From Escherichia coli (GTDB lineage Bacteria; Pseudomonadota; Gammaproteobacteria; Enterobacterales; Enterobacteriaceae), in assembly GCF_041248615.1 (NCBI RefSeq), contig NZ_CP158426.1: 64,000 nt of DNA, one strand, 5' to 3'. Of the stretch, positions 3,001-9,000 are shown piece by piece. A program made the position numbers. Each line of letters starts with the position of its first letter. Position 1 is the stretch's first letter.

Positions 3001-6000
3001 GTTCAGCTATGACCGCCACGGCAACCTGCTGGCCTGGACGGACGGCAATGGTGTTGTCTGGACAATGGAGTACGGCCCGTTCGATTTGCCGGTGGCGCGA
3101 ACGGACGGTGAAGGCCACCGCTGGCAGTACCGCTATGATAAAGACACGCTGCAACTGACAGAAGTCATTAACCCGCAGGGTGAGTCATATCTTTATGTTC
3201 TGGATAACTGCGGCCGGGTGACGGAAGAGCATGACTGGGGCGGCGTGGTCTGGCGTTACCGCTATGACGCCGATGGCCTGTGTACCGCCAGGGTCAACGG
3301 CCTGGAGGAAACCATCCTCTACAGCCGGGACGACGCAGGCCGCCTGGCAGAAGTCATCACGCCGGAAGGCAAAACGCAGTATGCGTATGACAAATCCGGC
3401 AGGCTGACGGGTATCTTCAGCCCGGACGGCACATCACAGCGCACCGGCTATGACGAACGCGGGCGGGTGAATGTCACCACTCAGGGCCGACGGGCCATTG
3501 AATACCACTACCCCGATGAACACACCGTCATCCGCTGTATCCTGCCACCGGAAGATGAACGCGACAGACACCCCGGTGAATCCCTGCTGAAAACCACGTA
3601 CCGCTACAACGCAGCCGGAGAACTGGCAGAGGTCATCCTGCCGGAGGATGAGACGCTGACGTTCAGCCGTGATGAGGCAGGACGTGAAGTGCTCCGGCAC
3701 AGTAACCGGGGTTTTGCCTGTGAGCAGGGCTGGAATGCAGCCGGTCAGCTTACCAGCCAGCGCGCCGGACTTTTCCCGGCAGAAGCCACATGGGGCGGGC
3801 TGCTCCCCTCACGGGTACGGGAGTACCGTTACGACAGCGCGGGTAATGTGTCAGGCGTCACCAGCCGGGAAGATTACGGACGGGAAACACGGCGGGAATA
3901 CCGGCTGGACCGGAACGGCCAGGTCACGGCGGTGACAGCCTCAGGCACCGGGCTGGGCTATGGCGAAGGCGATGAGTCCTATGGCTATGACAGCTGCGGC
4001 TACCTGAAGGCGCAGTCTGCGGGCTGGCACCGGATAAGTGAAGAGACTGACCAGTATGCCGGAGGCCACCGGCTGAAACAGGCCGGAAACACGCAGTATG
4101 ACTATGACGCCGCAGGCCGGATGGTCAGCCGCACCAGACACCGTGACGGCTATCGCCCGGAAACAGAGCGGTTCCGGTGGGACAGCCGTGACCAGCTGAC
4201 CGGGTATTGCAGCGCACAGGGTGAGCAGTGGGAATACCGCCACGACGCCAGCGGCAGACGAACAGAGAAACGCTGCGACCGGAAGAAAATCCGCATCACG
4301 TACCTGTGGGACGGCGACAGTATTGCGGAAATCCGGGAATACCGCGATGATAAACTGTACAGCGTACGGCACCTGGTGTTTAACGGCTTTGAGCTGATAA
4401 GCCAGCAGTTCAGCCGGGTACGGCAGGCGCATCCGTCGGTGGCCCCGCAGTGGGTGACACGGACGAATCATGCGGTGAGCGACCTGACGGGCCGTCCGCT
4501 GATGCTCTTTAACAGTGAAGGTAAAACCGTCTGGCGACCGGGACAGACCAGCCTGTGGGGGCTGGCACTCAGCCTGCCCGCGGACACCGGCTACCCGGAC
4601 CCGCGCGGGGAACTGGACGCGGAAGCCGACCCCGGCCTGCTGTATGCAGGACAGTGGCAGGATGCGGAATCCGGGCTGTGCTATAACCGGTTCCGGTATT
4701 ACGAGCCGGAAACAGGGATGTACCTGGTGAGTGATCCGCTGGGGTTGCTGGGGGGTGAGCAGACTTACCGGTATGTGCCGAATCCGTGTGGGTATGTTGA
4801 TCCTTTGGGATTAGCAACATGTCCCATAATCAGACAACGGGTGCTGGCTAACCTTGAAGCCAGTCGGGCAGCAAGGGCTGCATCTAATTTTGGTAAGAAA
4901 AATATCTATGATTTTATCAAGGCAACTCAATCTGCTATCCCTGGCACCTCTATCCCAAAATCTTTTGAGATTATAACTGCTAATGGTACTTTCTGGGTAC
5001 ACCCAAATGCTACAAAACATATGGCTGAATATTTGACTCGGAACGGTCTCTCACATTCAACTTCTGTAGAGAGCCAAATAATGTTAACAAGTTTTCACGA
5101 AGCTGTAAGTTTGGCTAGTGCTCAAGGTATAAAGTATGAAGAAATGATGAATGTTGGCGGCTGGGAACTAGTATTTAGTCAAGCTAAATCTGACTCGGCT
5201 TTATCAGTTATTAAACATGCTCTTTATAAATGACGATTATGCTTACATTAGAAAATGAAACAAACTACAAAGATGTTGTTGTTAATATAGATGAATTTGT
5301 ACCTTTTGATATAACTTTTGGAAAGGGGAGCGAACAGTGTTTGTACTGGAGAGGCGGCAATGGTAAAAGTTCTTTGGTTGAAGTTGGGTTAAATATGTAC
5401 AGCGGAGAAGTAAGTAACATCACACTAGCAAATATCGATTCAGGTGAAATTAACATTACAGATGAGATGTTAGCCAACAACCTTCCTGAAATACAAGGGT
5501 CTGTTATATTTCAGACAAGCGAGTGGCTTAATAAAGACATTTCCGAATACTCAAACAGATTTATTGATGATTTTGATTGCAATATCAAGTTAATAATTGG
5601 TAGTAATTACATTAAATTATTATTTAAAAAAGCAACAAATCCCATTTGTTATATCATTAATAGGAATATAAGATTTGGTTTTTCTTTGAGTAGGGAACTT
5701 TCGACATTGGAAATATTAGACCTCAATCAAGAAAAATTAGATATTCTAAAGTTATTTAAATAGTTTTAGTGTTTGAAACTTACCGAGAGATGATAGCTAT
5801 GAATGAATACAAAAACATCCATCTTGGAGGAAACAATGGAATGTTAATCCATTAAAAAACATACTTCAATATCTTTAGTGAAGAAAGAGTTGTATGAAAG
5901 AAATATATCTTATGTGAGCGACATGATGCATGCTAATTATATTATTGGCCGGAAATTTTATGATGATAGCAAAAAGGAGGGGTTATTTCTGTAAGAATGG

Positions 6001-9000
6001 ATATACCCGCAGGGTTTGAACCAGACATTTATTTGTTGAAGTCTAAGATCCAAATGGAAGCATTTATATCCCTCAGATATTATGCGTTGACGGGTTGATA
6101 AAGATACTTTTAGAGGGTTAATAAATGGAGAACGTATAATAAATCTCTTAAACAAACTATAACCTGTACTAATGAAAAAAATGGGAATAGATAAGTTAAT
6201 AGCCTATTCTAAAAATGGTAAAGTGGTTTTACTTCCAAAATAATGGAGTTTAGTATGAAAATCGAAGCTAATTCCCTTACTCATCCCTATGACTACAACG
6301 CCTCACTGAACAATTATTTACATTATTTTGAGAATTTCTCTCGTAATGACTGGAATAAAGATTCATGTGGAGGATATTTTACTTTTAGAGATGATGACAG
6401 AGAGTGTGTTTTGTTTTTTGTGAATTATGGTGATAATTTTTCATTGCGCTATGATTGTACACAAAGTTCTGATGGAATAGTGTCATGCTGGTATAGTAAC
6501 CATGAAGATGATAAAATGAATATCATCGTCGATGCTGATACAGAACAATTTATCCCTTTAGGTTCTTGCTTACCTCCTGATATTACTTTATCAGTAATAA
6601 AAGATTTTTTCAAAAATCCTTTAGAGAAATCAAAAAAAGTAAAATGGATGAATGCAGATGACATTGACTGGTCATCTGTGTATTAAAGTTGGATTGGATA
6701 ATTATCTGTTTCAAAAATCATTAAATTTAGAACCTATCTGTTCAACAGAGCTGCCTTGAACAGCAGGTTCTTTTATGATGTCCAGGAGCGAATATGCCTG
6801 TGATGTCTGGCACTCAGCATCTGACTGACCTGGACTACTGATCCTACTCACACAGGGAGCTAGACCTGGAAGCAACCTACTGTAAGCAGTGCAGTAGCAG
6901 CCCACCTCACATCAGTCCTTGCAAGGTGTGGGCCTTTGTGATCTTGCTCTGTATTGCTGAGATCCTCAGGAAGGACTCGAAATTTAATCAGGAAGGCCGT
7001 TGCTAAAAATCAAAAAATAAATTCAAGAGCAATTTCTAAAACTTTTGAATCTACTGTATCGGATGAGGTTTTCACTCCTTTCCAAAAGGTGAGTTTTCAA
7101 GCATTCAAGTTTCTGTTATGACCAAAACTTCACCATTTAACACTAATCCGAGTATTATGTTACCATGAAGAAAAAAGATATTAGATTTGCAATATCCATT
7201 AACTCCAACTCAAGTAAGATAGAATTAATGGAAAAATTAAAAACATAATCCCAGGGCTTATTGAAATAACTCCCAGTGCATTAAGAGAAGAAAAAACATG
7301 GTAGTTATTGAAGATAATGATCTTTATGACCCTATAAAAGCAGAGGGAGTTGATGGATGGATGTATTATAAATTCATATTATCCATATTCCCATTAAAGG
7401 GAGTAGACACAACATTAGAATATCAACGGGAATTATCTTTTCTTTTCTTAAAGAAATTAAAAGATGCGGGTCTGTTAGGTGAACTTATATGCGAGGATGA
7501 TTTTCATGACTGATGACCTCTACATATATCCTCAGTTCGTGGCTGGTATTACATGATCTGACAGGGAAAGATCGTAGCGAAATCAAAAAAGACGTGGATT
7601 TCCCGGAAGCCGGTGAAGACACAGCGCTCTGCGACAAGGAGACTAAACCGCCGAGGATAACCCAGGGCAGCAGCAACGTTTTTATCAACAATCAGCCCGC
7701 CGCGCGCAAGGGGGACAAACTGGAGTGCAGTGCGGCGATCGTGGGAGGTTCGCCGGACGTCTTTATTGGGGGTGAGCAGGTCACCTATCTGGATATCCAG
7801 CCGGAGTTCCCGCCGTGGCAGAGAATGATCCTGGGGGGAATAACGATAGCCAGCTATCTTCTGCCGCCAGCGCAGGGAAAGATCACGTAACGCTGCTTTT
7901 TTGTACTAAATAATTCGCACTAAATGTTCAATAATTGAGATATTCCTTATTACCTAAATACAGTTCCACCAAGATTACCTAAACCCAAATGAGGTAAAAG
8001 ATAGTGGGTATGAATAAAAATGAAATCCATTTCCCTATAGGATATGGTTGGTTGAATGAAAAAAAAATTATTGGCACCAGTGAATTTAGCCAATTAGAAC
8101 CATGGTTTTATCTAGATGAGAACAGGTGTTTTTTTGCGAATAAAAAATGGCCAAATGTCATAGGTGAACAATTATTCGCTTTTGCTAAACGTCAAGATAA
8201 TGATGAATTGGCTTGTTTCAAAATTAATGAATCTGGAGTCTGTGAGGGTGTTTATTTAATTAATGGGTGGACTCCTAACGGGTTTGATATTATACAATTT
8301 TACCCTGATTTTTGGGAATGGGTACATTTGGTTATACAAGATGTCTCGGAGTGGATTGATAATAAAGGATAATTTGAAACAAAAGTAAAAAACCGCCTTC
8401 ATTGAAGGTAACGTGGAGTGGTGGGCGGAGCAGCCTGCCCGCAGACACAGACTACCCGGACCCGCGCGGGGAGCGGGACGCGGAAGCCGACCCCGGCCTG
8501 CTGTATGCAGGACAGTGGCAGGATGCGGAATCCGGACTGTGCTATAACCGGTTCCGGTATTACGAGCCGGAAACCGGGATGTACCTGGTGAGTGATCCCC
8601 TGGGGTTGCTGGGGGGTGAGCAGACTTACCGGTATGTGCCTAATCCTAGTGGGTATGTTGATCCTCTGGGATTAGCAACGTGTCCTATACTCAGACAGTG
8701 GGCGCTGACTAACCTTGAAGCCAGTCGGGCAGCAAGGGCTGCATCTAATTTTGGTAAGCCTCTGGTCCAGCGAAATAAAACGATTGGCGATAAAGTAAGG
8801 GATATGATTGCCAAAGAGAGGGGAACCACTCTAATTGAACAAAATTATAGAGTGACAGGAGGATTAAAGCGTATTGACGTTGTTGATGGAGTAACGGGTA
8901 TAGAATCTAAAGTCGGTCGAACAGGGTTAACAACCCGAGTACGGCAAGAGGTAGCGCGGGATATTAAGATTTTGAGAAGTGAGCAACTTGATCAAATTGA

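Follow-up and report, generated by a model that had tools for sequence, protein, structure and literature searches.

Papers on the orphan cassettes of Rhs and CdiA proteins place the boundary between carrier and variable toxin at DPxGL, VENN or (Q/E)LYN (PMC3150448, PMC4436062), and the survey of polymorphic toxins by Zhang et al. (2012) lists PT-VENN, DUF637 (PT637) and DUF637-N as pre-toxin domains, with HINT as a releasing protease (PMC3482391). Here we describe a 28-residue leader that follows the DPLGL junction in two of the three Rhs toxin tails encoded in a 64,000-nucleotide (nt) stretch of Escherichia coli DNA (contig NZ_CP158426.1, assembly GCF_041248615.1; referred to as the window). 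This leader is probably a separate module, an instance of an α-helical pre-toxin junction motif that precedes unrelated toxins in Rhs proteins of type VI secretion (T6SS), CdiA-like proteins of the type V system (T5SS) and LXG/WXG100 proteins of the type VII system (T7SS). Within the E. coli rhs lineage, its 84 nt, placed after DPLGL, form the end of the conserved, core-linked portion of the gene; toxin-immunity cassettes have been exchanged by recombination at the leader's 3' edge, and exchange at DPLGL itself swaps leader-bearing for leader-less tails.

The leader motif resembles the described demarcation elements, PxxxxDPxGL, VENN (PT-VENN, PF04829), (Q/E)LYN and PT-TG (PF14449), in being a short conserved element at the boundary between carrier and variable toxin, and like them it is kept at the 5' end of orphan cassettes, where sequences diverge (PMC3150448, PMC4436062). 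It differs from them in its sequence, in having no Pfam model and in not being bound to one delivery system. It can be present in two to four tandem copies. In Rhs proteins it is additional to and downstream of DPxGL, and in a Paraburkholderia CdiA-like protein it lies ~150 residues after the DLYN motif. None of the hidden Markov models for PT-VENN, PT-TG and PT-HINT matched over the segment, and in P0030, a protein that carries PT-HINT, this domain lies downstream of the motif. Among all the proteins scanned, none had a Pfam-A match over the leader or motif at E values up to 1; no NCBIfam model covered the motif, and no PDB chain matched the motif profile even at an E value of 10. The motif is apparently undescribed so far; nothing in the survey of Zhang et al. 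corresponds to it (PMC3482391), and a literature search found no description of it or of a shared helix after DPxGL, a result that leaves room for an unnamed mention and is not proof of novelty.

Two further systems invite comparison. The cytoplasm-entry domain of CdiA C-terminal regions (CdiA-CTs) is a module between release site and catalytic domain that can be exchanged independently of the toxin (PMC9424206). The leader shares this arrangement, and the solved CdiA homologue of our tail-2 effector (PDB 7VMC, chain B) has an N-terminal region of this kind at the place that the leader takes in the Rhs tail. However, with 28 residues and one predicted helix the leader does not belong to these folded domains of roughly 100-180 residues, and whereas the entry domains are diverse and receptor-specific, the leader motif is one conserved sequence. 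The ALF repeats, α-helical modules of the central filament of polymorphic toxins, are likewise short, repeatable helical units containing Ala, Leu and Phe that are found with several secretion systems (PMC3482391). Unlike these central, filament-forming units, the leader motif lies close to the toxin and, in most cases, singly. We rejected its assignment as an ALF repeat, given the absence of any match to ALF (Pfam PF03752) in the Pfam scans, the different position and the mostly single copy.

The sequence under study is a chromosomal T6SS effector locus of E. coli, flanked by cusS and nfrB, whose main rhs gene is already under way at the start of the window, its 5' part lying outside. In a near-identical record, NZ_LT599825, the gene order is vgrG, a DcrB-related gene, a 1619-aa rhs, a small open reading frame (ORF), a 776-aa orphan rhs, small ORFs, a PAAR fragment, a short rhs fragment, a DUF4304 gene, IS3, an ISAs1 transposase and nfrB. 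The window contains three PxxxxDPLGL junctions, at 1824, 4784 and 8645 (PCGYVDPLGL or PSGYVDPLGL). The organisation is that of an Rhs C-terminal region with orphan cassettes: DPxGL stands at the end of a YD-repeat core (RHS_repeat Pfam matches), and a variable tail, a small downstream gene, a core piece and, from the vgrG and DcrB-related genes upstream in NZ_LT599825, linkage to vgrG and the T6SS are all found. The elements on which the argument turns are as follows.

1824-1853, plus strand: PxxxxDPLGL junction that closes the main rhs core, PCGYVDPLGL then AKTSVP...
1854-2303, plus strand: tail 1, the leader-less C-terminal toxin region of the main rhs, 149 aa and a stop codon
2903-4813, plus strand: orphan fragment of rhs core that duplicates the 3' part of the main one (RHS_repeat Pfam E 6e-47)
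4814-4897, plus strand: leader copy 1 (tail 2), ATCPIIRQRVLANLEASRAARAASNFGK in translation, predicted helix at 4823-4882
4841-4891, plus strand: core of the pre-toxin motif, VLANLEASRAARAASNF, the sole match in the window to the degenerate motif pattern
4904-5233, plus strand: tail 2 toxin domain, EF-Tu-dependent CdiA tRNase family by AlphaFold, Foldseek and phmmer
8431-8674, plus strand: rhs core remnant of ~245 nt that opens the third orphan (ORF 8402-9100), a partial pseudogene in RefSeq
8675-8758, plus strand: leader copy 2 (tail 3), ATCPILRQWALTNLEASRAARAASNFGK in translation
8759-9100, plus strand: tail 3 toxin region, the ORF after leader copy 2

An initial annotation of this DNA had claimed that tails 2 and 3 are near-identical after DPLGL before becoming unrelated, that tail 1 lacks the shared segment, and that a second, internal breakpoint is implied. 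Alignment bore this out. Translation of 4700-5400 reads ...YVDPLGL, ATCPIIRQRVLANLEASRAARAASNFGK, KNIYDF..., and that of 8561-9300 reads ...YVDPLGL, ATCPILRQWALTNLEASRAARAASNFGK, PLVQRN.... The two leader copies (4814-4897 and 8675-8758) are identical at 24 of 28 residues and 77 of 84 nt, and homology ends abruptly past GGTAAG (4897/8758; SNFGK in the protein), the following 300 nt being unrelated at 47% identity. In tail 1, DPLGL is followed directly by AKTSVPVSIVEPKK (AKTSVPVSIV...), with no leader, no match to the leader motif and no significant Pfam family. Because the DNA of the shared segment is homologous and none of 100 window shuffles matched the degenerate core pattern, the resemblance is not due to chance. 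Over the 1853 nt that end at DPLGL, the orphan (2961-4813) matches the main rhs (1-1853) at 98.0% identity, and the two diverge beyond it, so that the same core allele has been joined to leader-less and leader-bearing tails; tails 2 and 3 part company 84 nt later. The core remnant ahead of leader copy 2 (8431-8674) shares ~92% identity with 4570-4813. All seven mismatches between the leader copies fall within 4819-4847 (the first 34 nt), while the last 50 nt (4848-4897) are identical, a distribution that suggests gene conversion between the two orphans may have taken place in this lineage. Tail-3-type leaders of other strains differ within the 3' part that is identical in the window copies.

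Among complete E. coli genomes, 142 of 5426 carry the 84-nt leader, at 253 places, all of them chromosomal. Ten variant loci were retrieved and their tails read. This revealed that the tail-2 and tail-3 toxins are each found behind several leader alleles, and that at least four toxins follow the E. coli leader: those of tails 2 and 3, an HNH-type toxin in strain DETEC-S792 (L008; signature HVDHIVP, weak Pfam HNH match) and a bacterial RNase-A-like domain in a database fragment (P0021; RNAse_A_bac, PF18431). Identities were calculated segment by segment.

Window tail 3 (win_t3) against L007: core 86%, leader 86%, toxin 98%
Window tail 3 (win_t3) against L004: core 93%, leader 87%, toxin 96%
L007 against L008: core 91%, leader 93%, toxin 47% (unrelated toxins)

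The tail-3 toxin, with DNA 96-98% identical, is thus placed behind leader alleles that are only 86-87% identical. As divergence of the leader follows that of the core and not that of the toxin, near-identical toxin cassettes have been moved onto diverged core-plus-leader backgrounds, and the point of exchange is therefore the 3' edge of the leader. The sub-modular tail of the initial annotation, a shared leader plus a variable toxin, holds in its composition, but genealogically the leader lies on the core side and is not part of the toxin cassette.

Within the leader, the ratio of the proportions of nonsynonymous and synonymous differences (pN/pS, Nei-Gojobori) was 0.07-0.12 for most pairs and up to 0.47 for pairs with window tail 3, and pS reached 0.41, similar to the last 50 core codons. 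Because pN/pS is low at a pS as high as 0.41, the peptide is constrained and not just recently copied, which indicates purifying selection on the leader, judged from these substitution patterns. Between AR and SNF, a 9-bp unit (GCTGCAAGG, encoding AAR; window 4865-4885) is repeated in frame within the leader; its copy number is two in the window, three in L005 and L006, five in L009 and L010 and ~13 in the orphan of strain UC4224 (L002, 2553-2668). In L005, L006, L009 and L010 the repeat lies at about nt 2550. No Chi site or other DNA signal was seen in the leader by eye.

Several further observations concern the leader and its surroundings. In strain 1579 (L003), an IS1 element lies inside the leader of the main rhs (4343-4420; ATCPIIRQRVLANL then VMLPTY), cutting the core from the toxin. 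Enterobacterial leaders start with A-T/G-C-P (window 4814-4825), an unrelated E. coli Rhs tail starts with AICPVMYDWY... (L002, L005 and L009, near nt 1024), and a Dickeya orphan primer encodes GLVGCP (PMC3150448); an x-x-C-P start directly past DPxGL recurs independently of the leader motif.

The leader motif is not confined to E. coli. A word-indexed search with three concatenated leader variants found three matches among protein sequences clustered at 90%, a database that probably under-reports the leader through the merging of full-length Rhs proteins with different tails. A profile of 30 columns built from six leader variants (A4), run exhaustively against 1.84 billion representative proteins, gave 20 matches at E ≤ 1e-3, with one to three motif copies, which included YD/Rhs proteins with HINT, DUF637/CdiA-like proteins and LXG-like proteins. 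These matches were of two kinds, namely enterobacterial-type Rhs tails with further toxins (P0026-P0029 and P0031) and unrelated polymorphic toxins with one to three copies of the core. Individual matches are given below.

P0030: YD/Rhs protein with two motif copies upstream of PT-HINT and a C39-like peptidase
P0032/P0033: 2161 aa, DUF637, CdiA-like
P0034: Ntox15
P0035: LXG-like N-terminus
P0040: Gram-positive-type RHS protein

We also scanned DNA with a degenerate pattern for V/I-L-x-N-[ILV]-[EA]-x-S-[KR]-x-A-R-x-x-S-[NK]-F, which carries about 40 bits and, from this information content, is expected to match ~0.5 times by chance in 6e11 positions. One genome from each of 100,044 species yielded 58 matches at 54 loci, all but one (Arcobacter) inside long ORFs and 100-280 residues from the C-terminus. 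Metagenomes gave the same picture, with 126 matches at 118 loci; 12 of the matches lay within 14 residues of DPxGL. The context was that of a polymorphic toxin for 57 of the 58 genome matches and 125 of the 126 metagenome matches, and both window copies lie within ~60 residues N-terminal of a C-terminal toxin domain. The hosts belong to the Proteobacteria, Firmicutes, Myxococcota, Planctomycetota and Acidobacteriota, and include a Gemmatales metagenome-assembled genome (MAG). The carriers, with domains confirmed by Pfam, comprise the following.

LXG or WXG100 N-termini: Streptococcus mitis-group, Lachnoanaerobaculum, Paenibacillus, Cohnella
Two-partner secretion (TPS) domain and haemagglutinin repeats (Fil_haemagg): Paraburkholderia, Collimonas, Cardiobacterium, Hyphomonadaceae
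Rhs/YD: Caulobacter, Massilia, Citreicoccus, a Thermoanaerobaculia MAG
Rhs, with the motif directly after DPxGL: Photorhabdus, Xenorhabdus, Serratia, Superficieibacter

The initial annotation had proposed a survey of Rhs and CdiA C-terminal sequences that tabulates the effectors behind the leader. The scans described here found the motif at 54 genome and 118 metagenome loci, and unrelated toxins behind it; the leader is indeed present in Rhs and CdiA-like proteins, but it is not peculiar to them, being found in T7SS toxins as well. The sequences that follow the last motif copy fall into 45 BLAST clusters, with a median of 157 aa to the C-terminus (interquartile range 124-199). They include TNT, Scabin-like/pertussis-type ADP-ribosyltransferase, Ntox46, Tox-SHH, the BURPS668_1122 deaminase, CdiA_C, EndoU, LHH and Ntox15; about half of these tail families have no annotation, and every identifiable toxin acts on cytoplasmic substrates. 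In Serratia silvae, the tail-2 toxin stands behind a diverged leader (ATCPIIKQRVLDNIAASRAAREASNFKRS then TVYDFIKATQ), and diverged leaders precede further toxins in Photorhabdus, Xenorhabdus, Serratia, Superficieibacter and Massilia.

Two groups among these proteins deserve mention. An unannotated toxin family of ~124 aa, with the signature ...GY..D.W....L..G....YGG, recurs after the motif in CdiA-like and other proteins (L044, L083, L117, L125, L127, L145, L157 and L183), and the one representative scanned (L044) had no Pfam match. Streptococcal LXG toxins and orphan arrays (L038, L063, L096 and L141, from Streptococcus and oral metagenomes) carry one to four tandem motif copies with a period of 58 residues, consisting of the helix and a Pro/Lys-rich linker (...SNFDQYLAKEKLQ...); in other taxa the period is 36 residues.

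The motif itself spans roughly 20 residues, with the consensus [RK]-x-x-[VI]-L-x-N-[IL]-[EA]-x-S-[KR]-x-A-R-x-[SA]-S-[NK]-F. Across 69 distinct instances, near-invariant positions were V/I1, L2, N4, I/L5, E/A6, S8, K/R9, A11, R12, S15, N/K16 and F17. Position -2 was [RK] in 68 of the 69, a preference not forced by the search pattern, and K, H, D or G took the place of the Asn at position 16 in 17. In a helical-wheel projection, the conserved positions (N, S, A/R, S/N and F) span ~200 degrees, with positions 3, 7, 10 and 14 facing away. The hydrophobic moment is 0.12-0.42 and the mean hydrophobicity negative. Net charge ranges from 0 to +3, with the E. coli leader at +2 to +3 and Streptococcus copies down to 0. 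Where the motif is repeated, the tandem copies have fixed periods of 36 or 58 residues.

Turning to the toxins behind the leader, a search with the tail-2 C-terminal region returned ~20 homologues from Pantoea, Erwinia, Photorhabdus, Faucicola and metagenomes, alike in the portion from IYDFIKATQ onward; in these, the toxin sits behind quite different upstream (pre-toxin) regions without the leader. An AlphaFold model of tail 2, computed from an alignment of these ~20 homologues, had a mean predicted local distance difference test score (pLDDT) of 84.5. It placed a helix over residues 4-23 (pLDDT about 60), then a linker (24-30) and a compact α/β domain (31-139), with a pLDDT of ≥90 for most residues; the leader is thus predicted to be a single helix, joined by a tether of 5-8 residues to an independently folding toxin domain. 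The domain matched chain B of PDB 7VMC, an EF-Tu/CdiA/CdiI complex, both in sequence (phmmer E 8e-41 to 'tRNA nuclease CdiA') and in fold (Foldseek E 4e-14, template modelling (TM) score 0.94, root-mean-square deviation 1.5 Å, 63% identity), and so falls within the EF-Tu-dependent CdiA tRNase family on both counts. The tail-2 effector would accordingly be expected to cleave tRNA in an EF-Tu-dependent manner. As it is 63% identical to 7VMC_B, with a TM score of 0.94, a CdiA toxin is here carried by an Rhs/T6SS scaffold; the likeness concerns the effector behind the leader and not the leader. In the 306-residue CdiA-CT of 7VMC the toxin occupies residues 182-306, and the position of the 28-residue leader of the Rhs tail is taken by ~180 other residues. 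The tail-3 toxin had no Pfam, NCBIfam or PDB sequence match, and its AlphaFold model, from three near-identical input sequences, was unusable at a pLDDT of 39. An impression of a PD-(D/E)xK motif (IDVVD...ESK) in tail 3 was set aside as unsupported, with no usable model and no PDB match.

Each of the three tails is followed by a putative immunity gene.

2308-2784, plus strand: putative immunity gene of tail 1, the ORF directly downstream, a hypothetical protein in RefSeq, role suggested by position
5230-5763, plus strand: putative immunity gene of tail 2, its start overlapping the toxin stop codon (RefSeq WP_001370340.1)
9112-9681, plus strand: DUF4304 gene, putative immunity gene of tail 3 (PF14137, E 5e-10)

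The WP_001370340.1 gene was found behind the tail-2 toxin in every strain examined, and the DUF4304 gene behind the tail-3 toxin in L003, L004 and L007. The region that separates orphans 2 and 3 (6243-8372) resembles the debris of a further effector module: it contains small ORFs rich in AT (6243-6686, 7298-7513 and 8004-8372) together with a fragment of a PAAR domain that is rich in GC (7513-7890; PF05488, E 6e-12) and marked as a pseudogene in RefSeq. An IS3-family element (9652-10925, minus strand) abuts and overlaps the 3' end of the DUF4304 gene (9112-9681), which is 558 nt long in strains without IS3; an ISAs1/H-repeat transposase (11385-12521, plus strand) follows, and then nfrB at 12719.

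What might the leader do? Rhs proteins cleave themselves at DPxGL, so in E. coli the leader forms the N-terminus of the released toxin fragment. As one face of the helix is conserved across phyla and delivery systems, it probably docks to something common to these toxins after their export. The helix would then act on the toxin as a docking or adaptor element, irrespective of the secretion machine, possibly during hand-off, release or import in the target cell, and we infer that it is neither a mere spacer nor part of the catalytic domain. In its strongest form, which we regard as an unlikely extrapolation, the motif would be a universal, secretion-system-independent docking helix that binds a component conserved in Gram-negative and Gram-positive targets, or serves a conserved step of toxin unfolding and refolding, and that imported nucleases, NADases and ADP-ribosyltransferases require to reach, or become active in, the cytoplasm. 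A number of points weigh against a docking role. AlphaFold confidence for the leader helix is only about 55-65, and because the DNA pattern forced 11 positions, the apparent conservation is partly circular and inflated; the docking role itself is read from the conservation pattern only. Moreover, the motif lies upstream of a HINT domain in P0030 and of a VENN-like site in P0032, where it would probably stay with the carrier and not travel with the toxin. The motif is also optional, as tail 1, most Rhs tails and all but 142 of the 5426 complete E. coli genomes do without it, and expansion of (AAR)n inside it is tolerated, with n=3 (L006) and n=5 (L010) in apparently intact full-length genes, which fits a spacer better than a precise binding surface.

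The main rival of docking is that the leader is a structurally inert helical spacer kept as a standardised crossover site, with selection acting only on helicity and reading frame so that crossovers there give functional chimeras, and with tandem copies and (AAR)n as scars of unequal crossing-over. Besides the tolerated repeats and the optional motif, this explanation, which we consider rather unlikely, can draw on the coincidence of the polymorphism boundary with the motif in E. coli, on Streptococcus orphan arrays that are conserved through the motif and diverge only after it, and on the fixed 36- and 58-aa periods of the tandem copies, which resemble recombination scars. However, near invariance of N, S, R, S and F across phyla would not be expected of a plain spacer, and neither would the unforced [RK] at position -2, and with pS up to 0.4 and DNA identity of about 86% it is at the protein level that the leader is conserved. 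It is improbable, too, that the leader extends the Rhs core in a lineage-specific way and serves the cage, either as the P' side of the aspartyl autoprotease substrate or as a positive plug or anchor in a negative cocoon, with no role outside Rhs. Leader alleles do track the core allele, the Enterobacterales leader starts directly past DPxGL, often as x-x-C-P, and the Rhs interior has been reported as negatively charged, with a leader of net charge +2 to +3 in E. coli. Yet the motif is shared by LXG/WXG100 and TPS/CdiA-like toxins, which lack an Rhs cage, some Rhs proteins (P0030, L032 and L025) carry it 100-300 residues past DPxG, and its net charge, from 0 to +3, is not conserved.

An import function would make the leader a membrane-active or electrophoretic helix that takes the released toxin through the cytoplasmic membrane of the target, a miniature counterpart of the CdiA-CT entry domain. 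The leader does take the place of the roughly 180-residue N-terminal domain of the homologous CdiA-CT (7VMC), all identifiable toxins behind the motif have cytoplasmic substrates, and Arg-rich (AAR)n expansions add positive charge. We nevertheless hold an import helix to be quite improbable: the hydrophobic moment is low and mean hydrophobicity negative, the charge falls to zero in Streptococcus copies, and HINT or VENN-like processing sites follow downstream of the motif in some proteins. A membrane-active or cell-penetrating helix was judged unlikely on the low moment and the unconserved charge, and the enrichment of cytoplasm-acting toxins was rejected as uninformative about import, because Rhs effectors are almost all intracellular anyway. 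Finally, pre-toxin domains have been proposed as processing sites (PMC3482391), and the short, flexible and variable tether that follows the motif in the AlphaFold model would suit a site that a protease recognises or cuts to release or activate the toxin domain. This is very improbable, as enterobacterial Rhs toxins are already released at DPxGL and the Asn at position 16, a candidate catalytic-like residue, is replaced in 17 of 69 instances. We also know of no protease common to the three delivery systems.

The pre-toxin junction motif has consequences at several levels. Rhs tails are usually treated as one block from DPxGL; because the leader belongs to a broad but sparse junction motif, they appear here as bipartite in the manner of CdiA-CTs, with a conserved helix followed by the effector, and the leader refines the model by which orphan cassettes recombine into expressed genes. 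One motif is common to toxins of three unrelated export machines in at least five phyla and is missing from Pfam, NCBIfam and PDB, and it offers a sequence handle for the true N-terminal boundary of unknown toxin domains. Should it be only a crossover-friendly spacer, it would still be a useful annotation, with no new mechanism; should the universal docking helix be true, it would represent a common post-delivery step of T5SS, T6SS and T7SS toxins. The motif provides a small, mutable target for asking what becomes of polymorphic toxins after export.

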